Source: Dehalococcoidia bacterium (GTDB lineage: Bacteria > Chloroflexota > Dehalococcoidia > Bin125). Taken from it: DNA of 37,351 nt. A program made the position numbers and the translations under genes. The notes under the pieces were generated by a model. That model worked only from the letters and a program-made list of their open reading frames with translations, did not search any database and had not been told where the DNA came from. This document shows, piece after piece, positions 1 to 37,351 of the stretch; positions within the stretch are counted from its first letter, which is position 1, and the number at the start of each line of letters is the position of its first letter. The stretch lies in assembly GCA_963663235.2 (NCBI GenBank), contig CAXXNO010000014.1:1-37351 (forward strand). Reading direction: 5' to 3'.

Positions 1-529
1 TCGTCCACGAGCGGACGCAGGACGGCCGGGCCCTGCGCCTGCGGACCATCGTGGACGCGTGCCCGCGGGAGTGCCGCAGCAGCGACGTCGCCCGGCGCCT
101 GCGCTCCGACGACGTCCTCGCCCGGCGGACGGCGCTCTTCGTGCAGCGCCGCCCGCCGGCCTCCCTCCGCTCCGACAACGGCCCGGCGTGCACCGCGAGC
201 GCGGTGCGCTCCTGGCGGCAGCGGCGCGGCGTGACCACGCGCTTCATCGCACCGGGCAGTCCCTGGGAGAACGGGTCTGGGGAATCCTGCAACGGCACGC
301 TCCGCGACGCGGGTCTCAACCCGGAGATCTTCACCACCCGGACCGAGGCCCAGATCCTCATCCAGCGCTGGCGCCGCCAGTACAACCAGGTCCGGCCCCA
401 CAGCGCCCTCGACTCCCGCCCGCCCGCCCCAGAAACGCTGGAGATCCGACCTCCCCACCCCGCCCCCTGGGCAGACCGGAGGGTCGCAGCACTCACTTCA
501 CGACTGGCACAACAATCGGGGGCAGGTCA
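1..529 (+). mobile_element. Right end of a degenerate IS3-family element (OrfB integrase core plus right terminal inverted repeat); continues off the window
   Basis: The frame from nt 3 reads ...LRSDNGP..., ...PGSPWENG.GES.NG.LRD..., ...YNQVRPHSAL..., colinear with OrfB of the IS at 9712-10955. It ends in GGGGGCAGGTCA (518-529), the same terminus as that IS. The stop codon position (ALT-TGA in the other copy) reads TCA here, so the ORF track runs through the IR. Confidence 0.93.
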
Positions 530-735
530 GAAGCGCCTTCGGACCTGGGGGGAGGAACTTAGATTGGGCGAGCCACCAGATCGCCCGCCCCGGCACCGTC
601 TCCGGGACCAGCGTCACTCGGGACACGGCCGACATCGCCATCTCCAGGCCGCGTAGGGCGCGGCCTCCGCGAACCACGACAGCGCTCGCCACGTCGAGTC
701 GCGGGGTACGCTGGGCGAAGACTCTCCCAATACGG

Positions 736-1125
736 ATGACGATGGCCCTCCCGAGTCTCCCCGGTGGCACCGCATCGAAGGTCGCCGACCTCTACGAGGC
801 GGCGTGGACGGTCGACCGCCTGCTGGACCTGCTCGCCGGCGAGATCACCGCGCTGCACCTTGAGCCGCCGGGAGAAGACGGACTCGGCGTCGAGTTCTAC
901 ACGGTCCTCCCCTCCGGCGCGCGCGAGTACCACTCGGTCAAGCGCCAAGCGCCGGCGTCTTCGAGCGCCTGGACCCCCTATCAGCTCACCCACGCCACCC
1001 CGACCCCTGGCCGGAGCGTTCTTGGCGACCTCTTCCGCCACCTCGACGGGAACGACCAAGCCAAGGCAGTGTTCGTCAGTCAGGACAGCGCGCGAGACAT
1101 GCGGGAACTCGCCGAGCGGTCTGCT
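736..1125 (+). pseudogene. N-terminal fragment of a PD-(D/E)XK nuclease-like protein of the type usually fused to a large NACHT/ATPase (defence-like); truncated
   Basis: PGG..SK..D.YE..WTV..LL..L.G....L.LEP.G....GVEF......G..EYHSVKRQ pattern recognised by eye. Protein-like sequence stops after about RELAERS and turns into low-complexity read-through. Confidence 0.5.
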
Positions 1126-1163
1126 GGCTGCCGGCTGAGCGCCCCCCGGCCCCCAGAAGGCGG

Positions 1164-1214
1164 CTTACCTCCTTACCAACCCCCCATTCGATACCAGAGG
1201 TATCGAATGGTAAG
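1164..1214. other. Perfect hairpin with flanking CTTACC/GGTAAG repeats (origin-like or terminator-like site)
   Basis: CCATTCGATACC-aga-GGTATCGAATGG (1184-1210, 12-bp stem); CTTACC at 1164 and 1172, GGTAAG at 1209. Confidence 0.5.
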
Positions 1215-1246
1215 CGCTGCTATCGGGTCGGGGCCCGGCCGGGCCC

Positions 1247-1969
1247 TTACCAGCTCGCCTCCTCCGAGTCCTCCTCGGGGCGGCAGCGCGCGGCGACCGC
1301 GGCGACCGTGGCGTCGGACGGCTCGGTCAGCACGATGGGCGGATCCAGCGTGATCTGATCGATGAGCGCCGCGAGTTTCGTACGGCAGCGGTCCGCTTGG
1401 GCGTGGAGTGCGGCGTCGAGCGGATCGGCGTTGAGTTCCGCCGCGAACGCGGCGACCTCGATCGCCAGCGCGCGCAGCAGATGGTGCGCGTTGCGGACGC
1501 CGTCGCGGAGCAGGGCGTCCATCGGCGGATACGGCCGTTCTGGCGGCGCGGTGCTCTCCATGTCCGTCATGAGGAACCGCAACCCCTGCAGGACTTGGCG
1601 CGCCGCCCCGTCGAGGTATCGGTCGGCCGCCTCCGCCCGGCCGTGACGGGGCTGCCAGCCGTCCAGCGCGTCCTGCAGGCTCTCCACCAGGATGGCGAGC
1701 TGCGTGTTCGTGATGCGCCGGTAGGCGATCCACTGGAGCATGTCGATCTCGGACTCGGCCCGCGTCAGGCAGGCGCGGACGGTCGCGTTGAGCTGATCGA
1801 GCCGATCGGCGTAGCGGTGGAGCTCGGCCCAGCCGGCCGGCGTCAGCCCGCGCCCGATGTCGTCGTAGACGGCGGTGTTGCCGGGTCCGGCCGCCAGCAT
1901 CGCGGCGATCCGCTGCCGCACCGTCATGCGGGTCGCGACCGTGCGCAGGCGGCGCTCACGGTCCCGCAT
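1247..1969 (-). CDS. Hypothetical helical protein, last gene of the phage-like operon
   Basis: 240-aa ORF with normal composition. The ATG overlaps the end of the upstream ORF 1956-2351. Confidence 0.7.
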   Translation of the reverse strand: MRDRERRLRTVATRMTVRQRIAAMLAAGPGNTAVYDDIGRGLTPAGWAELHRYADRLDQLNATVRACLTRAESEIDMLQWIAYRRITNTQLAILVESLQDALDGWQPRHGRAEAADRYLDGAARQVLQGLRFLMTDMESTAPPERPYPPMDALLRDGVRNAHHLLRALAIEVAAFAAELNADPLDAALHAQADRCRTKLAALIDQITLDPPIVLTEPSDATVAAVAARCRPEEDSEEASW

Positions 1970-2351
1970 CGGGGGCCTCCCGCCACACGCCCGCCTCCAG
2001 CGCCCGCAGGCGGGCCTCGAACTCGCTGGTCTCCTGGACTCGGGCCGCCACGGACACCAGATGGGCGAGGGCCCGCGTGCGCGCGATCGAGTTCTCCAGC
2101 TCCAAGGTGTCCGCCAGCGCCAGCTCCAGGACGCGCTGCAGATCCGCGCCCGTGCCGAACCCCTCCAGGGCGTAGGCGCCCCCGACCGTCCCCTCGCGCC
2201 GGCGGCGCAGCCCCCCGAGCCGGCGCGCCTCCGCGGCCGCCGCGCGGGACTCGGGCGCGTGCCAGAAGCAGGCGCTACCCGCGCGCAGGGCCGGCGCCCG
2301 GCAGGGCCGCCCGTTCGGCTTCAGCGCCCGGCAGGCGGGACGGTCAGGCAT
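1956..2351 (-). CDS. Small Cys/His-motif protein (C-x9-C-x-A-P-A..C-x-x-H), resembling phage/satellite small-terminase-associated proteins
   Basis: CRALKPNGRPCRAPALRAGSACFWH...ARRLGGLRRRRE...E.EARL.ALE. Start overlaps the methylase stop. Confidence 0.7.
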   Translation of the reverse strand: MPDRPACRALKPNGRPCRAPALRAGSACFWHAPESRAAAAEARRLGGLRRRREGTVGGAYALEGFGTGADLQRVLELALADTLELENSIARTRALAHLVSVAARVQETSEFEARLRALEAGVWREAPDAGP

Positions 2352-3568
2352 CGGTGGCCTCCCCCGGGTCCAGCGGCACGGCCGCCTCGCCCGTGAACGC
2401 CTCCCAGCGCGCGATCGTCGCCGCCACGTAGCGGGGGTCGATCTCGATCCCGACGCCGCGGCGCCCCGTGCGCTCGCAGGCGATCAGCGTCGTGCCCGCG
2501 CCGCAGAAGGGGTCCAGGACCGTGGCGCCGGGGGGGCTGGAATGCTCGATCGCCCGCTCGACCAGGGCCAGCGGCTTCTGGGTGGGGTGCAGCGGCGAGG
2601 CGGTGGGGCGCGGGATGGGCCAGACGTCGCCCTGGTCGCGCCCGCCGGCCCAGTGCCGCTGGCTGCCGTCCGGCCAGCCGTACCAGATCGGCTCGTACTG
2701 CCGCTGATAGTCGGCGCGGCCCAGCGTGAAGCGGTCCTTGGCCCAGATGATCGTGTCCGACCAGTGGGCGCCGGCCTCGGCCAGGACGCGGCAGACGACC
2801 GGCCACTCTCGAGAACTCATGCAGATGTACAGGGCGCCGGCCGCGTTGGCCGTCAGGCTCGCCGCCCAGGCCCGGCAGAAGCGCTCCCACGCCTCGGCCG
2901 GCAGGGCGTCGTTGATCAGGCGCCGGGCGGGCCTGTCGGCGGCCTTCCCACCATGGGCGCCGTAGGACACGTTGGAGGGCGGGTCGGTGAAGACCAGGTC
3001 CGCCGGCCGGCCGCCCAGGCAGCGGGCGACGAATGCCGCGTCCGTGGCGTCGCCTTGGAAGAGACGGTGGGCGCCCAGCCGCCAGCCGGCGCCGGGGGCG
3101 ATCCCGCTGGTCGAAGCGGGTCAGCAGATCCTGGAGATCGGGCTCGGCGAAGCCGCTCAGCGTGAGGTCCCGGGCCGCCGTGGCACGCAGGTCGATCAGC
3201 AGGCGGGCCAGCAGGTCGGCGTCCCACTCCCCGCCGATGCGGTTCAGGGCGACGTTGAGCAGGCGGGCATCCTCCTCGGCGATGTCGAGCAGGATCACGG
3301 GGACGGTCGTGAGGCCGGCACGGCGGGCGGCGACGAGCCGCTGGTGGCCCGCGATCACGCGCCGGTCGGCGCGCCGCGCGAGCACGGGGTCGACGACCCC
3401 GAACGTGGCGATCGAGCGGGTCAGGGCGGCCAGCTCCGCCTCCCCGATGCGGCGCGGGTTGCCCGGATCGGGGTGCAGGGCCTCGATCGGCAGCTGTTCC
3501 ACGATGAGGGCGGCGGCGGTGGTGGGCACGGATCCCTCCGCTTGCGCGTCGCCGCCCTGGGCGGTCAT
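2344..3568 (-). pseudogene. ParB-N domain fused to an N4/N6 DNA methyltransferase (phage type); frameshifted at about 3095 and catalytic motif altered
   Basis: ParB-like N-terminus (LHPDPGNPR, FGVVDPVL, VIAGHQRLVAAR, LNVALNRIGGEWD). After a frame change: WRLGAHRLFQGDATD, VFTDPPSNV (motif IV is normally DPPY), HPTQKP, VLDPFCGAGTTLIA, GIEIDPRY. The interdomain linker looks shortened. Confidence 0.9.
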
Positions 3569-3813
3569 CGGGACCCGCCCGTCCCGCGCAGGTCCCCGAG
3601 ACCCGGCTGGGGGTGGAGGACGCTCCGATCGCCCGATCGGTCCACGATCAGGAAGCCCTCAGCCTCCAACTGCGTGACCAGCGCGGCAATGTTGACGCCG
3701 ACCGCCGTCGCGATGCGGTCCAGCCCCGGCCGCTCGGCCTGGGTGCCGAGGCGCCACCGCTTCGGGCGGTGCAGCCGCCCGATGGTCTCGCCGAGAGTGA
3801 GCGCAGTCTCCAT
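3565..3813 (-). CDS. Small hypothetical protein (possibly DNA-binding), first gene of the operon
   Basis: ATG at 3813; the stop overlaps the ParB ATG (ATGA). Lies about 50 bp downstream of a LexA box. Confidence 0.6.
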   Translation of the reverse strand: METALTLGETIGRLHRPKRWRLGTQAERPGLDRIATAVGVNIAALVTQLEAEGFLIVDRSGDRSVLHPQPGLGDLRGTGGSR

Positions 3814-9588: not shown

Positions 9589-9740
9589 TGGGCACTGCGA
9601 TCTCTTCCGCCCATCCTTGACGTCTTCGTACAGGATGCGACACGGACACCATCAGAGCAGGAATCGGGACGTCTGTGCATCGCACGGAACAGGGACATGA
9701 CGTCATGCCCCTGACCTGCCCCCCAGCTTTGTACCACGTT

Positions 9741-10625
9741 TCAAGTTAGTGCTGGGACGGCTTGCAGCGGCTGGAAGGCTGCGTGCGGCCGCACCTCGAG
9801 GGTGGGTGGGGCGGGGGGCCGGTAGCCGAGGGCGCTGTGGGGCCGCCGCTGGTTGTATTCCCGCCGCCAGCGTTCGATGAGGACTTGGGCCTCGACCAGG
9901 GTGGTGAAGATCTCCCCGTTGAGGCACTCGTCGCGTAGTTTGCCGTTGAAGGACTCGACATAGCCGTTCTCCCAGGGGCTGCCTGGTTGGATGAAGAGGG
10001 TGGTCACGCCGACGCGGGGCAGCCAGGCGCGGACCGCGTGGGCCGTGAACTCCGGGCCGTTATCGGAGCGCAGATAGGCGGGCGGCCCGCGCTCGACGAA
10101 GAGCTGGGTGAGGCAGGCCAGCACGTCATCCGCCCGCAGGCGGCGGGCGACGACGATGGCGAGGCACTCGCGGGTGTACTCGTCCACGATGCAGAGCAGC
10201 CGCAGCGGCCGCCCGTCGTGGGTCCGATCCTGGACGAAGTCGTACGACCAGACGTGGTGGGGGCGGGTGGCCCGCCGCCGCGTGGTTGTGCCGTCCGCCA
10301 ACCACAGCCGCCGGCGCCGTGGCGGCTTCGGGGGCACGCGCAGCCCCTCGCGGCGCCAGCGCCGCTCGACCCGTTTGTGGTTCACGCGCCAGCCCTCGGC
10401 GCGCAGCAGGGCGGTGATGCGACGGTAGCCATAGCGCCCGAAGCGCTGCGCCAAGGCGACGATCCGCGCCACCAGGGCAGGCTCATCCGGGGCCGCCCGC
10501 GCGGGATAGCGTTGCGTGCTCCGTGCTTGCCGCAGGACGCGACACGCCCGACGCTCCGAGACGTCCAGGGCAGTCTGCGCGTGGCGGACTGCCTGGCGCC
10601 GGCGCGCCGGGCTTAGAAGTTTCCC
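9741..10625 (-). CDS. IS3 transposase OrfB (DDE integrase core), probably expressed by -1 frameshift
   Basis: RYGYRRI, WSYDFV, LRSDNGPEF, WENGYVESFNGKLRDE motifs. Slippery heptamer G GGA AAC (10625-10619) is followed by a GC hairpin CCGGCGCGCCGG. Confidence 0.93.
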   Translation of the reverse strand, partial: GKLLSPARRRQAVRHAQTALDVSERRACRVLRQARSTQRYPARAAPDEPALVARIVALAQRFGRYGYRRITALLRAEGWRVNHKRVERRWRREGLRVPPKPPRRRRLWLADGTTTRRRATRPHHVWSYDFVQDRTHDGRPLRLLCIVDEYTRECLAIVVARRLRADDVLACLTQLFVERGPPAYLRSDNGPEFTAHAVRAWLPRVGVTTLFIQPGSPWENGYVESFNGKLRDECLNGEIFTTLVEAQVLIERWRREYNQRRPHSALGYRPPAPPTLEVRPHAAFQPLQAVPALT

Positions 10626-10891
10626 GAGGCCACTTCCTTCAAGATCGCGTTGTCCAGCGCCTGATCCGCCACCAGTCGCCGCAGGCGCTGGTTCTCCTTC
10701 TCCAGCTCCTTCAGCCGCTTCGCCTGGTTGACCTGTAGTCCGCCGTACTCCCGCCGCCAGCGGTAGGAGGTCTGTTCGGCGATGCTGAGCCGCCGCGCGA
10801 CCTTCGCCACGCTGTCCCCCTGGGCCAGGGCGACCTCCGCCTCCCGCAGCTTCGCAATGATCTGCTCCGCCGTGTAGCGCTTCCGTGCCAT
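10613..10891 (-). CDS. IS3 transposase OrfA (HTH)
   Basis: MARKRYTAEQII.KLREAE...EQT.YRWRREYGG....AKRLKELEKEN.RL...VAD..LD..ILKE. Confidence 0.93.
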   Translation of the reverse strand: MARKRYTAEQIIAKLREAEVALAQGDSVAKVARRLSIAEQTSYRWRREYGGLQVNQAKRLKELEKENQRLRRLVADQALDNAILKEVASGNF

Positions 10892-11158
10892 ACCTGCTCC
10901 CTTCGCGACCCCGATCCTCGCATGGGACCTGGATCAGTTCTCGGGGGGCAGGTCAGTTCCCCCTGGTATTCTCGGAGTGCGCATAGAGCGTCACAGTGAC
11001 CGCTTCCCTCTCGGCACCTCGCTCCCAGGTGGGCGACCGGGCCGTTCGGGCAGTCTACCGCTAGAACGTCAGCGTGAACCTCAGAACGAGGGAGGGCGTC
11101 CTGGGCGATGGCGCGCAGGTCCAGGTTGCTGAGGTTCTGGGGGTCGGGCATGCGTCGG

Positions 11159-32776: not shown

Positions 32777-33759
32777 GCGATTGCTGCGCTCCCGGGAGCG
32801 GCGGATACGGCCGGCCGATCGCGGCCCGCCTCCGGTCTGCACCGAACGTCGTCGCCGCCGGGGACAGGTCCGGTGGGCCCATGGTGTCCATCCCGGGCGG
32901 AACCTTCCAGATGGGGGCCGACGACGCCATCTCCTACCCCGAGGACGGGGAGGGTCCGGTCCGGCCGGTCACGCTGTCGCCCTTCCAGATCGATGTCCAC
33001 GCCGTCACAAACGCTGAGTTCGCGATCTTCGTCGAGCGGTCGGGCTATCGCACCGAGGCCGAGCGCGAGGGCTGGTCCTTCGTCTTTGGGGGCCTGCTGC
33101 CGGACGACTTCGCGCCAACGCGGGGCGCGGCGGACGCGCCCTGGTGGCGGCGGGTGGAGGGCGCGTGTTGGTCGCATCCTGAGGGTGCGGGAACGAGCGT
33201 CGTAGGGCGCGAGGACCATCCCGTCGTGCACGTGAGCTGGGCGGATGCCGCAGCGTACGCGGCCTGGGCGGGGCGCGGATTACCCAGCGAGGCGCAGTGG
33301 GAGTGCGCGGCCCGCGGTGGGCTGGACCGTCGCCGCTACCCCTGGGGCGACGAGCTGGAACCCGGCGGCGAGCATCGGATGAACGTGTGGCAGGGGGACT
33401 TCCCCTCGCGCAACACGCAGGACGACGGCTGGTACGGCACCTGCCCCGCCGATACGTTCCCGCCCAACGACTACGGTCTGCGCAACATGACCGGCAACGT
33501 CTGGGAGTGGTGCGTCGATTGGTTCGACGTCAACGCGTCGGTCTCCCAGGACTCGGTCGATCCTACCGGCCCGCCGGACGGCGACCTGCGCGTGCTCAAG
33601 GGGGGCTCCTTCCTCTGCCATGCGAGCTACTGCGCGCGCTACCGCCCCGCCGCGCGCATGGGCCTCCCACCAGACAGCAGCACCAGCAACGTGGGCTTTC
33701 GTTGTAGCCGCCCAGGGACCGGACCGGCCCTTCCGGGGACGGTTGCGGATCAAGGGTGA
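32773..33759 (+). CDS. Formylglycine-generating enzyme (SUMF1/FGE, sulfatase maturation)
   Basis: F.MG, VTNAEF, HPVVHVSW.DA.AYA.W.G..LPSEAQWE.AARGG, GNVWEW, KGGSFLCHASYCARYRPAAR with both catalytic Cys. Confidence 0.95.
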   Translation: MSDCCAPGSGGYGRPIAARLRSAPNVVAAGDRSGGPMVSIPGGTFQMGADDAISYPEDGEGPVRPVTLSPFQIDVHAVTNAEFAIFVERSGYRTEAEREGWSFVFGGLLPDDFAPTRGAADAPWWRRVEGACWSHPEGAGTSVVGREDHPVVHVSWADAAAYAAWAGRGLPSEAQWECAARGGLDRRRYPWGDELEPGGEHRMNVWQGDFPSRNTQDDGWYGTCPADTFPPNDYGLRNMTGNVWEWCVDWFDVNASVSQDSVDPTGPPDGDLRVLKGGSFLCHASYCARYRPAARMGLPPDSSTSNVGFRCSRPGTGPALPGTVADQG

Positions 33760-33799
33760 GGGCGCTGGGCTCGCGAGCCCGGTGCCCAATCCCGGGCTG

Positions 33800-34612
33800 A
33801 TGAGTCCTGAACAGGCCATCATCTTTGCGCTGCTGGGGGCCGGGATCTCGATCTACGCCATCAGCGTGGGGGCGGGCGGTGGCTTCCTGTTCACGCCACT
33901 GCTCCTGCTGTGGTACGAGGACGCGGACCCGGCAGCGATCACCATGGCCGCCCTCTCCGTGGTCGCGCTGAACAGCGCTGCGGCCGCCGCGCTCGCGGCC
34001 CGGGCCCGGCTGCTGGACTATCCCGTCATCCTGGTGTTGCTGGCGGCAGCCCTGCCCGGATCGTTGATCGGCGCCTTGGGTACCTCGGTCCTCCCGCGCT
34101 CAGCCTTCGCCGCGATCTTCGCCGCCCTGCTCATCGCCGTGGGTGTGCATCTGATCTGGCGTCCTGTGCATCACTTCGGTGGCCCGCTACGCCACGGATG
34201 GCCACGACGATTCCGGGACGGCGAAGGGAATAGATTCGCCTACCGGCTGCCGCTGCGACGCTCCCTCATGGCAACAACTGCGACGGCGGCTGTTGCATCG
34301 CTGACAGGGATCGGGGGCGGCCTGCTCTACACGCCCATGGCGATGAGCGTCATGCGGATGCCCCACGCCCTCGCCGCGCCGACGGCCTACGCCGTGATCG
34401 CTGGCATGGCGCTGACCGCCGTGACCGTCCAGGCTGCGTTCGGCAGCGCCGCACAGCCCATGTGGGCCGTCCCACCGCTTGCGGCGGGCGCGCTTGTCGG
34501 CGGGAGTGTGGGGTGGCGATTCCAGCGCCGGAGTCGCCAGTCGACCTTGACACGCTTGCTCGCGGTCGGCCTGATCGCCATCGGCGTGCGCAGCGCGCTG
34601 CTGGCCTTCTGA
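33800..34612 (+). CDS. TauE/SafE-family sulfite exporter
   Basis: Two G.GGG motifs (VGAGGGFL.TP.L; GIGGGLL.TP); about 8 hydrophobic segments. Confidence 0.88.
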   Translation: MSPEQAIIFALLGAGISIYAISVGAGGGFLFTPLLLLWYEDADPAAITMAALSVVALNSAAAAALAARARLLDYPVILVLLAAALPGSLIGALGTSVLPRSAFAAIFAALLIAVGVHLIWRPVHHFGGPLRHGWPRRFRDGEGNRFAYRLPLRRSLMATTATAAVASLTGIGGGLLYTPMAMSVMRMPHALAAPTAYAVIAGMALTAVTVQAAFGSAAQPMWAVPPLAAGALVGGSVGWRFQRRSRQSTLTRLLAVGLIAIGVRSALLAF

Positions 34613-34794
34613 CCCGGAACCCAATCCCCCCATGCAGGCGCCCCCACCGTTCGGTCTGGTGACAGGCTTCCCCGTCGTCGAACGGCTGCTCGTCGCGAAC
34701 GTGCTGCCCGTCGACTGACTGTATCTAAGCCACAATCAGGAGGACTTTGATCGACTGATCGGATGGGGCCACGACGGCGTCCAGGGGGGAGGAC

Positions 34795-34847
34795 TGGTGG
34801 GCCCTCTGGGATTCGAACCTGAGCGACGGATTAAAAGTCCGCTGCTC
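34795..34847 (-). other. tRNA-Lys(UUU) 3'-portion with CCA (att-like remnant, not a full tRNA)
   Basis: Reverse complement GAGCAGCGGACTTTTAATCCGTCGCTCAGGTTCGAATCCCAGAGGGCCCACCA. The 5' acceptor strand and D-loop are absent. Confidence 0.8.
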
Positions 34848-35253
34848 CGATCCCAGAGGCGTCTCCGCCCGGTAACACGGGCGGAACAGTCCTGGAGACC
34901 GACGGACTGCAACTCAGCAGGTCTGCCAGACTCCCGAGGGCTGAGGTCGCCGGCGCGCGTCTCCCGCTCACAAGTTCGCGGGATTCCGGGCGCGATCTAA
35001 TATTCGTGCCCCACACCGAGGGAAGCGGGACGTGGGCCAGGTGCCGAACGGCGCCCTGCGATCCAGGCCATGCCCATGCGATGCTCCGCCGACGTGGGTC
35101 ACAGCCCGGGTGGCGCGCGACCCGCGCACATTCGATAGACCCGCGCCAGGGGCACGGCGTAACGCGGTGACGTTCCGTCCGCGCCCTGCAGGTCGTAACC
35201 AAGGCTTGACTCCGGATGAGGTTTTGGGCCTGTGTGTCAATCTGGACGGATGT

Positions 35254-35272
35254 AGGACGTATGTTCTATCCT
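35254..35272 (+). promoter_or_regulatory. Near-consensus LexA box overlapping a -10 element
   Basis: AGGAC-gtat-GTTCT (35254-35267) running into TATCCT; RBS GGAGGA at about 35289. Confidence 0.5.
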
Positions 35273-35297
35273 GCGACCGGCCGGTGGCGGAGGAACC

Positions 35298-35621
35298 GTG
35301 ATGCGCGACGACAGCATTGAGATGCGCCCCTTTCGCGGGCGACCCGGGGTTCCTCCCTGGAGCGCCCCCCCGTCACTTCACCAGCAACGGCTCGCGCTGC
35401 AAGCCGAGGCGGCCGCGCTCATCGTGGCGGCGTGGGAACGCATCCACGAAGCCGACGTCCTGACCACCCGGATGCCCCATGCCGCCGACGGCGAGCTGGG
35501 CATTGAGGACGCGCTGGCCGAGTTAGCGACGGTCGCGGCGCGCCTCGACCGCACGGTCATCCAACCCGCCTTGCGGGCAGACCACCAGCCAGTTCCAGCC
35601 CGCAGGGCGCTCGCCTCGTGA
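35298..35621 (+). CDS. Small hypothetical protein
   Basis: 107 aa, good RBS, helical composition. Confidence 0.5.
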   Translation: MMRDDSIEMRPFRGRPGVPPWSAPPSLHQQRLALQAEAAALIVAAWERIHEADVLTTRMPHAADGELGIEDALAELATVAARLDRTVIQPALRADHQPVPARRALAS

Positions 35622-36093
35622 GCCGCCTCTGGCGCCAGGAACTCGCCGCGTGCGAGCGGCGGCCCCCTGCTTGCTGGTGCAAGACCGATTGGCGGCATGG
35701 CCGTGAGCTGTACTTCGTCCGATCGTCTTCGTCCAGGCTCAAGGTCGTATCGTCCTGTTCCATTGGCTCAGTCATGATTCTCCTCTGCCTCGAGTTCAAG
35801 CGTTTTTATTCGGACGTCCACCCTTGCCTCCCTTGGGGGCCCGCCCGATCCCCGTTGCGATCTTCGGTTCCTGAGTGGACCAGGCGAGGTGAGCGCTCGG
35901 CCCACCAAGAACGCCAGTAGCGGCGCCAGCCACACGATATTCCCATGGTGTGCCGAAACACGTCCGGTTGACCTATACGGGGGCCGGTCTGACGGTGCGA
36001 TCGCGGTGCGCTCAGGGGGGCGGGCCGCCTCCGTATCGCACTCGGGAGCAGCGACGAGTTCCAGGCGGGCCGCGGCTCGGGAGGGCTTCCGCA

Positions 36094-36218
36094 CCACCAT
36101 GGGCGCCGTAGGACACGTTGTAGGGCGGGTCGGTGAAGACCAGGTCCGCCGGTTGGCCGCCCAGGCAGCGAGCGACGAATGCCGCGTCCGTGGCGTCGCC
36201 CCGGAAAAGGCGATGGGC
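36094..36218 (-). pseudogene. Isolated ~125-bp fragment of the ParB-MTase gene (paralog of 2948-3072) with intact DPPY
   Basis: HRLFRGDATDAAFVARCLGGQPADLVFTDPPYNVSYGAHGG; DNA highly similar to 2948-3072. Confidence 0.9.
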
Positions 36219-36860
36219 AAGATAGAGCGGCATGAGCGATCCTTCCGACCCCAGATGGTCGCGGATCGGCCCGGTTCAGGGGCCGGATAGAGTTTTGCCT
36301 CCCCCCGCCCATCCCCAGCAGTAGCAAACACAGCCCGACGATGAGCGGAGGTCGTACTCATCCCACCATCCTCACCTCATCACGCTCGCCTCCGGCTTGC
36401 TCAGGAGTCTAGCCGTCAGGGGTCGAGTCGGGACGCGTCGTGATAGTTCGCACAAGGACAATCTTGACAAGCCCGGACCGCCCGGCCAGATTGCAGGCAG
36501 GGCTGGCCGCGCCTCGCACGGGGCCAACGGCCAGGGCCGGCGAGCGGCGGCGGACCGGACTCCGCCGGTGCACCGAAAGGAGGGTGTCATCCTGTTGGAC
36601 GACAGTCCGCCGCGCAGCGGCGGGACGCTCCTCCTGCGAGCCGCGGGGTTGCTGGACGAAGCGAACGTGAACCCTATCCCCCGCCCGAGAGGCGGCGCGA
36701 CGGAGCCGTTCGGAGCGGACAACCGCTCACCACCGCGAACGTAGCGATGAGCGTCGGAACCACGAGAAGCGGTGCGAGGGCCCGGTGTTGCACGCCGGGC
36801 CTCGCCGATCTCCGCGCCAGCGCACAGACCGGGAGCCGCATCCGCGAGAGGAGACGCCTG

Positions 36861-37287
36861 ATGGTGATTCGCTACGCACATCCGGAGGATCACGATGGCG
36901 CGGTGCAGCTCTGGGCGGCGGTCGGGTTTCCGACCATGTCGGACGACGAGGTGGGAGGTGATCGTGCGCAGCCAGACGACGTTCGCGCTCGTCCGTCGAC
37001 GAGGCCGGTCAGCTGATTCGGCGCGGCCCTGGCAACGTTCGACGGCTGGCGCGCGTTCCTCTATCACGTGGCGATCGACGAGGCGTATCGGGGGCAGGGC
37101 GTGGCGAAAGCCCTCATGGCGGAGGCCGAGGCGCGAGTTGCCGCTGCTGGCGCGCACTACCTCTATGCCCTCGTGCATGAGGAGAACGCCGCCGGGCTTG
37201 CCCTGGCCACCGTGATGGGATTCGAACCGGGAGGGGGACCTGGTGCTCGTGAAGGACCTCGTCGCAGACGATCCCGAGGCCGGATGA
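36861..37287 (+). pseudogene. GNAT acetyltransferase broken by several single-base indels (pseudogene or sequencing errors)
   Basis: MVIRYAHPEDH..AVQLW.AVG / ...ATFDGWRAFLYHVAIDEAYRGQGVAKALM.EAE...VHEEN..G......GF pieces lie in different frames. Confidence 0.75.
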
Positions 37288-37351
37288 TTCGCGGCACAGC
37301 TCCCAGGTACAGACGTATCGGGTGTGGCGGGAGCGGCCCAACGGGCAGACG

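Follow-up and report, generated by a model that had tools for sequence, protein, structure and literature searches.

The window analysed here is the entire 37,351-bp contig C14 of the Dehalococcoidia genome G000 (2.75 Mb, 14 contigs, 68% GC), and its first 529 positions hold the 3' part of a degenerate element of the IS3 family of insertion sequences (IS), which we call Q. Q lies on the forward strand at 1-529, is truncated by the contig start and carries 23 polarised A:T>C:G changes. It consists of an OrfB (rve/rve_3 transposase) remnant at 3-497 (+) and a right terminal inverted-repeat core, GGGGGCAGGTCA, at 518-529 (+), which places the element end at 529. The left end and the 5' part lie beyond the contig start, and the orfA/orfB arrangement is seen in the second IS3 copy of the window, C14b, and in the "main" IS3 family of G000. 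As the first-pass annotation of this DNA had stated, Q contains neither indels nor internal stops: the translation of 3-530 (+) is open, and alignment of the remnant with residues 116-280 of intact IS3 OrfB proteins (280 aa) needs no gaps, with 78% amino acid identity to an intact relative over these residues. Its Pfam matches to rve_3 (82.3 bits) and rve (41.1 bits) are each above cut-off, and the catalytic triad D, D, E is retained (IVD, SDNG, GES) when the alignment is read by eye.

C14b is an intact-looking copy at 9711-10957 on the reverse strand, with orfA at 10613-10891, orfB at 9744-10577 and the same inverted-repeat core, and it served as an unmutated comparison. The core GGGGGCAGGTCA of Q, common to all related copies, is identical to the right-end core of C14b, of the main family and of the IS3 element of G003, a genome from a different genus of the same family as G000. 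Q and C14b share 73-74% nucleotide identity, which bears out the earlier view that the two IS copies of the window are different elements, and Q is 71-74% identical to the ~20 other IS3 copies of G000, where it is single-copy. Its nearest named relatives are annotated "IS3 family transposase" in plasmid records, at 64-69% identity. Q is like the IS3 family in its rve and rve_3 domains, as are the full G000 copies in their orfA and orfB and their TG...CA terminal inverted repeats; unlike that family, Q and the 17-copy main family are transposase-dead with a substitution load of a single class.

The substitutions that separate Q from its intact relatives show a strong excess of A:T>C:G transversions, as had been proposed from the letters of the sequence. 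Q was polarised against the intact IS of G003 (83% nucleotide identity, the nearest DNA relative compared) with 8 outgroups. The 49 polarised changes on the Q branch, which exclude 29 ambiguous sites, comprise 23 A:T>C:G, 18 G<->C, 5 A:T>G:C, 3 G:C>A:T and no G:C>T:A, while on the branch leading to the intact G003 sister none of the 12 changes is A:T>C:G (Fisher p=0.002). The changes are balanced on the coding strand of Q, with 11 A>C and 12 T>G. Codon position 2 holds 20 of the 23 A:T>C:G sites versus 83 of the 153 available A/T sites (p=0.001), which agrees with the weak preference, described below, for A/T sites flanked by G or C.

These changes fall on residues that are otherwise conserved. 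Among 135 positions kept in at least 85% of 80 distant IS3 OrfB proteins, 73 are covered by Q; 17 of these are replaced, and for 13 of the replacements one A:T>C:G change is the only explanation. Among the homologues, replacements occur at 352 of 10,792 conserved positions, 18 of them of the A:T>C:G-only kind (p=1e-12 versus Q), a control in which the homologues (59-73%) were picked via intact peptide patterns and which is biased to undamaged copies. In the 35 GC-rich loci of this set, A:T>C:G-only replacements account for 10 of 176. C14b has 9 of the 135 conserved residues replaced, only 2 of them by A:T>C:G alone, and the G003 element likewise has 9, with 2 of this kind. The example codons given in the first-pass annotation, at 57, 63, 186, 189, 276, 279, 288, 297, 309 and 312, all coincide with polarised A>C/T>G sites (10/10); the I>S, L>R and further Y>S codons it also mentioned are outside these ten.

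Protein searches found relatives up to 90% identical to Q, and the aligned set forms two groups, one intact-looking, with the peptides DEYTRECLS, NGPEFTA and GYVESFNGK, and one of many damaged forms. Each damaged sequence carries its own set of replacements drawn from W>G, Y>S/D, F>C/V, L>R, V>G, E>A, H>P, N>T and Q>P. Q is a dead IS3-family copy whose lineage underwent real A:T>C:G hypermutation, a process limited, within this bacterial family, to certain lineages of IS3. Its open frame is no sign of function, since A>C and T>G changes yield a stop only from TTA or TAT. A practical warning follows, namely that gene callers report such dead copies as transposases because their long open frames persist.

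Tabulating the spectrum over the IS copies of the genome, as the earlier annotation had suggested, shows that the signature is wider than Q. The main IS3 family of G000 is 1245 bp long (17 intervals in the clustering, 15 copies aligned), and its copies are mutually 96.6-99.4% identical. Their pairwise mismatches (n=2212) include 1861 A<->C/G<->T and 224 transitions, counts which are non-independent and give overstated p-values. G003 copies with 95% identity to the main consensus allowed 81 changes to be polarised (26 sites were not polarisable), and 60 of these are A:T>C:G. This class makes up 19 of the 20 changes fixed across all main copies and 41 of the 61 polymorphic ones, and the informative sites comprise 14 A>C and 19 T>G.

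The main consensus encodes a dead transposase, with SDNG>SANG, PWENG>PWANG and a frame change at OrfB residue 134/135. Approximately 28-30 of the 135 conserved residues are replaced in main copies, ~21-23 of them by A:T>C:G alone, and a tandem copy in genome G005 has 34 replaced, 28 of the A:T>C:G-only kind. Over the full element, A:T>C:G makes up 35 of the 49 private changes of the main consensus and 48 of the 107 of the G005 copy (G005b), versus 2 of 55 in the 2-copy "sub" lineage of G000 and 9 of 144 and 18 of 168 in intact lineages. The G005 locus (L091, on G005:C1) holds two head-to-tail IS3 copies at 1129-2361 and 2365-3613, ~3 bp apart and 82% identical, of which the second, with its 48 private changes, is the most A:T>C:G-altered copy seen. 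In G003, the copies at L110 and L112 are 95% identical to the main consensus of G000 and differ from it mainly by A:T>C:G; this identity across two genera implies, as far as sequence comparison can tell, a recent IS transfer between symbiont lineages. L102, considered as a further degraded copy, proved to be a recombinant with an ordinary spectrum.

The sequence context of the changes is weakly biased. At the 60 changed A/T sites of the main family the preceding base is C or G in 85% of cases versus 67% at 292 unchanged sites, and T is avoided at the following position. This amounts to a weak neighbour preference, and a defined sequence motif was rejected; copying of the neighbouring base (dislocation) was also considered and, judged by eye, did not appear to fit. 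The element's first 100 nt, comprising the left inverted repeat and leader, are spared, with none of 31 A/T sites changed versus 60 of 354 overall (P=0.003). At columns 738/739, where the ancestor had a TA step, each of the 12 full main copies carries exactly one of two changes, T>G at 738 or A>C at 739; this is the same change on either strand of a palindromic dinucleotide. A further observation concerns the orfB frame change at residue 134/135, which is common to the main, "sub" and G003 copies, yet these lineages have spread within and between genomes. It could reflect a dead element mobilised in trans, a second recoding site, or a consensus error shared by the copies, each of which is possible.

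A:T>C:G change as the sole class is the classical signature of MutT deficiency, and a mutT-type genome-wide mutator has to be weighed, whether present or past in this lineage or acting in a former host of imported copies, with its changes visible only where selection is absent. Most A/T sites of G000 fall in the first two codon positions and four-fold degenerate sites are already 87% GC; since selection at those positions could mask a genome-wide A:T>C:G process in working genes, non-IS3 duplicates (at least 93% identity) were split by site class. Four-fold sites gave 49 A<->C/G<->T differences to 114 transitions (transition divergence 1.1%) and unassigned DNA 59 to 172 (0.61%), versus 1744 to 214 (0.18%) for IS3 copies. 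The corresponding ratios are 0.43, 0.34 and 8.1, an odds contrast of 19- to 24-fold whose size counts for more than its p-values, which are overstated because the pair counts are not independent. The non-IS3 duplicates are older than the IS3 copies by the transition clock, yet without the excess. The first-pass annotation had allowed that the same excess might run through all neutral DNA, and these duplicates do not bear that out. Also against a genome-wide mutator, a dead fragment of another IS3 lineage at C4:694270-694581 has 8 replaced residues, all of ordinary classes, and within G000 the A:T>C:G differences vary from copy to copy.

The search for mutT does not decide the matter. The cut-off of the mutT model TIGR00586 is exceeded in none of the 13 clade genomes, which taken alone would suit a mutator, but of 14 control genomes just 3 exceed it, and Nudix-type matches occur in 13 of 13 clade genomes. 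The mutT search does not separate hit from unhit genomes, and an inference from mutT is not supported, as no clade genome, hypermutated or not, passes the cut-off. The version in which the signature was imported from a mutator host draws on the crossing of genera by these elements, with G003 copies 95% identical to the main consensus. We rejected a genome-wide mutator as the main cause, although not absolutely, on the spectra of the non-IS3 duplicates, and consider it unlikely.

The repeats of G000 as a whole give the same picture. They occupy ~506 kb (18%) of the genome, and all 32 of the other repeat families (at least 90% identity), including duplicates of 3-10 kb, have ordinary spectra. 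An IS6-type family of 7 intact copies shows 101 transitions, 47 A<->C/G<->T and 13 G<->C. This element, which we take from its sequence to belong to the IS6 family, is 1087 bp long, encodes an intact 278-aa DDE transposase and has copies ~99.5% identical (for example C11:47105-48192 and C8:63742-64698).

The DNA adjoining Q is also ordinary. In the non-IS flank at 530-3557, the differences listed between 586-1083 and other strains (at least 25) comprise 17 transitions, 7 A<->C/G<->T and 1 G<->C, with 5 of the 7 A<->C/G<->T differences in the direction of A:T>C:G in the window, and comparison of 1119-3557 with a paralogue on C11 gives 138 transitions, 132 G<->C, 81 A<->C/G<->T and 9 A<->T. The density of A:T>C:G change, which the earlier annotation had proposed to follow across position 529, appears from these two comparisons to drop at or near the element end, the flank used being other than same-age unmutated DNA. 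No segmental duplicate carrying an IS3 main copy together with its flanks was found in G000, where the sole such pair carries unmutated "sub" copies. For several window fragments named in the first-pass annotation, Pfam assigned no family (the putative SDR, DUF262 and CaiB pieces) or matched only below cut-off (Pirin_C at 20.8 bits, Aminotran_3 at 22.2 bits), and with matches so weak or absent these fragments are unusable as neutral controls. The view that mutagenesis is concentrated on the IS agrees with the 32 ordinary families, the site-class counts and the flank, and on these comparisons the A:T>C:G hypermutation is confined to certain IS3 lineages and is no property of the genome at large.

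A sequencing or assembly artefact restricted to this repeat could in principle produce a localised signature. The rpoB gene of G000 (C4:535112-538711) is split into four frame pieces, with all three frame changes at G runs. This points to homopolymer indel errors in the assembly, so that frame shifts elsewhere in G000 are weak evidence for pseudogenes. Most of the damaged protein relatives derive from assemblies of a single source class, and the mosaic sharing of variants among copies, discussed below, could partly be consensus mixing. Against an artefact, a 183-base Logan contig from run X8 (possibly the source sample itself) matches window 106-288 exactly, and a 151-base contig from an older sponge-metagenome run, X1, with an Illumina-type adapter, matches 348-502 apart from a 4-base gap. 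These read-k-mer contigs cover ~10 (X8) and 2-3 (X1) of the 23 A:T>C:G sites of Q, and they give read-level support, of the kind that the first-pass annotation had called for, to 106-288 and 348-502. Runs with small shares of matching words, and uncovered parts of the window, were set aside as evidence of habitat or absence. Logan assemblies also contain a partly damaged relative, P0030. Substitutions in rpoB are unremarkable, with a difference at 1 of 124 columns that do not vary in the compared relatives (a set in which one of eight open reading frames, L007, is in the wrong frame), and large near-identical duplicates of 3-10 kb differ by 0.2-0.5%, mostly transitions. Errors would also not be directional at conserved A/T sites alone, and we regard an artefact as very improbable.

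The distribution of variants among copies bears on how the changes arose. Among polymorphic variants of the main family, singletons make up 5 of 41 A:T>C:G variants versus 14 of 20 in other classes (p=1e-5). A:T>C:G variants are thus mostly shared and other classes mostly private, which argues away from mutation of resting copies, as do the spared left end of the element and the occurrence of dead elements at 17 copies in G000 and at 95% identity in another genus.

This sharing speaks against host-directed hypermutation in place, in which some host function would single out the resident IS3 copies and disable their transposase in the manner of fungal repeat-induced point mutation (RIP). Such targeting would account for an excess found only in IS3 lineages and ending, as far as visible, at the element boundary, for the destruction of conserved and catalytic residues, and for an effect on the 17-copy family that passes over the 2-copy "sub" lineage. 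It predicts mostly private variants, however, and would have to spare the left end while heavily altering a tandem pair in G005 despite its low copy number. Neither the IS6 family nor the duplicates of up to 10 kb carry the excess, which leaves no general repeat sensor. No DNA-editing enzyme is known to make A>C or T>G, deaminases giving transitions. We therefore give in-place targeting little credence. Of the RIP-like host process put forward in the first-pass annotation, the excess, its direction and its concentration on IS3 stand; the analogy with RIP is not supported, and neither is the targeting of copies in situ, given that variants are mostly shared.

A second explanation for the sharing is biased gene conversion among copies without any hypermutation, in which MutY-like repair of A:G mispairs toward C:G would spread rare A:T>C:G variants and erase G:C>A:T ones. 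G000 does have a MutY-like glycosylase gene (205 bits, below the equivalog cut-off). Conversion would suit the strong homoplasy and mosaic sharing among main copies, in which 319 of 703 site pairs are incompatible, the intermediate to high frequency of A:T>C:G alleles beside singletons of other classes, and an effect strongest in the 17-copy family. Gene conversion creates no mutations, however, and 60 of 354 A/T sites are changed versus 1 other-class change fixed between G000 and G003. A general GC-biased conversion would also drive A:T>G:C, for which there are 5 variants in the main family, 4 of them singletons. The signature is moreover present in Q, a single copy at 71-74% identity to the others, and in G005b, from a genome with only two matches. 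Gene conversion as the whole explanation is in our judgement improbable.

The reading that we favour, tentatively and at somewhat less than even confidence, is that the changes arise during propagation of the element and not in a resting chromosomal copy. IS3 elements move by copy-out-paste-in, in which the element is re-synthesised end to end. We suppose that element-bounded synthesis of this or a similar kind would place G opposite template A, either through oxidised deoxyguanosine triphosphate (the 8-oxo-dGTP route, normally blocked by MutT) or through a low-fidelity polymerase of the same bias, and that the mispair would then be fixed. An intact relative could mobilise transposase-dead copies in trans, since their ends are conserved; C14b is a possible transposase source, and mutations would accumulate along lineages of such non-autonomous copies. 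The spared left end and the conserved inverted-repeat core would be expected if only mobilisable lineages persist. The roughly equal alteration of both strands fits synthesis of double-stranded DNA and not a one-strand route through RNA or complementary DNA. What the comparisons show is the spectrum, its direction, its restriction to IS3 lineages and the sharing of variants among copies; a role of transposition, a chemistry of oxidised nucleotides and mobilisation in trans are inferred.

Several observations weigh against propagation as the source of the changes. Sharing among main copies is far from tree-like (319 incompatible site pairs, with 421 +/- 11 under the null), so that the model would also need recurrent mutational hot spots, exchange between copies by recombination, or consensus mixing in a mosaic assembly. 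Changed positions recur between lineages, with Q and G005b sharing 8 versus 2.1 expected, yet sequence context is weak; this overlap occurs between lineages 12% apart on other substitutions. Five intact G003 copies show 0 mismatches over ~1250 bp, so transposition of a close relative can be faithful. No target-site duplications were seen at the 12 full main copies. Searches for mutT, MutY and Y-family polymerases found no polymerase or nucleotide-pool defect tied to the element, and DinB-like and ImuB-like genes are present in G000 and also in the less-hit G003. To these come the non-independence of the pairwise mismatch counts, the limitation of cross-platform support to part of Q, and the fact that the sequencing platform is not on record, which also leaves room for an artefact. 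As a separate observation, the two ImuB-like Y-family polymerase matches of G000 (C12:57236-57634 and C9:142331-142729) lie within a 9.3-kb segmental duplicate that directly adjoins the IS3 main copy at C12:52951-54203.

Comparison with known systems shows partial likenesses. The spectrum resembles that of MutT deficiency in being almost exclusively A:T>C:G and in affecting both strands, but a mutT mutator acts genome-wide and the excess here is limited to IS3. Fungal RIP introduces C:G>T:A transitions into any duplicated DNA before meiosis. As in RIP, copies of mobile elements are here inactivated by dense one-directional substitutions. In contrast to RIP, the changes are A:T>C:G transversions (only 3 of the 49 Q changes are G:C>A:T), other duplicated DNA is spared, and variants are shared and not private, so the RIP analogy drawn in the first-pass annotation fails both on the class of change and on the sparing of repeats in general. 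In diversity-generating retroelements, adenines of a single strand are replaced by any base, via RNA and a reverse transcriptase; these systems are similar in being local, templated and adenine-specific in their mutagenesis, and differ from what is seen here, where both strands are hit, A>C and T>G are balanced (11/12) and almost only C and G are produced.

Biased hypermutation confined to mobile elements is known from eukaryotes and their viruses, in the form of RIP, APOBEC and ADAR. We know of no such case for a bacterial DNA transposon, and of none that is transversion-based. A full-text literature search returned no element-restricted transversion hypermutation in prokaryotes and none for IS3, within the portion of the literature it reached, which falls short of proving absence. 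A more specific proposal is that a dedicated process, belonging to bacteria of this family or to the element itself, hypermutates one transposon lineage by A:T>C:G change within the element, either as a defence like RIP or APOBEC with a new chemistry or as an error-prone step built into IS3 copy-out, and leaves in place of active elements a swarm of dead copies mobilised in trans. We regard this proposal as doubtful. If real, such a process would bear on how IS die and why bacterial genomes keep few old copies, on the origin of non-autonomous IS derivatives, on the fidelity of transposition-linked synthesis versus chromosome replication, and on the parts played by mutation pressure versus selection in raising local GC.

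Other features of the window and genome were recorded in passing. On the reverse strand, one stretch at 2321-3568 reads in one frame as a ParB-like N-terminal part and in another as an N6_N4 DNA methylase (PF01555, 104 bits), and it has a paralogue at C11:36720-39230 that is 83-88% identical. The end of the window, ~33500-37351, has a coding signature in third-position GC in no reading frame, with GC of ~0.65-0.7 at all three positions, and may be non-coding or degraded DNA. G000 also contains large paralogue families, among them a ~590-aa protein in 16-17 copies and a ~340-aa protein in 13-15 copies, which from a reading of their sequences we take to be hydantoinase-B-like and luciferase-like oxidoreductase families, respectively.

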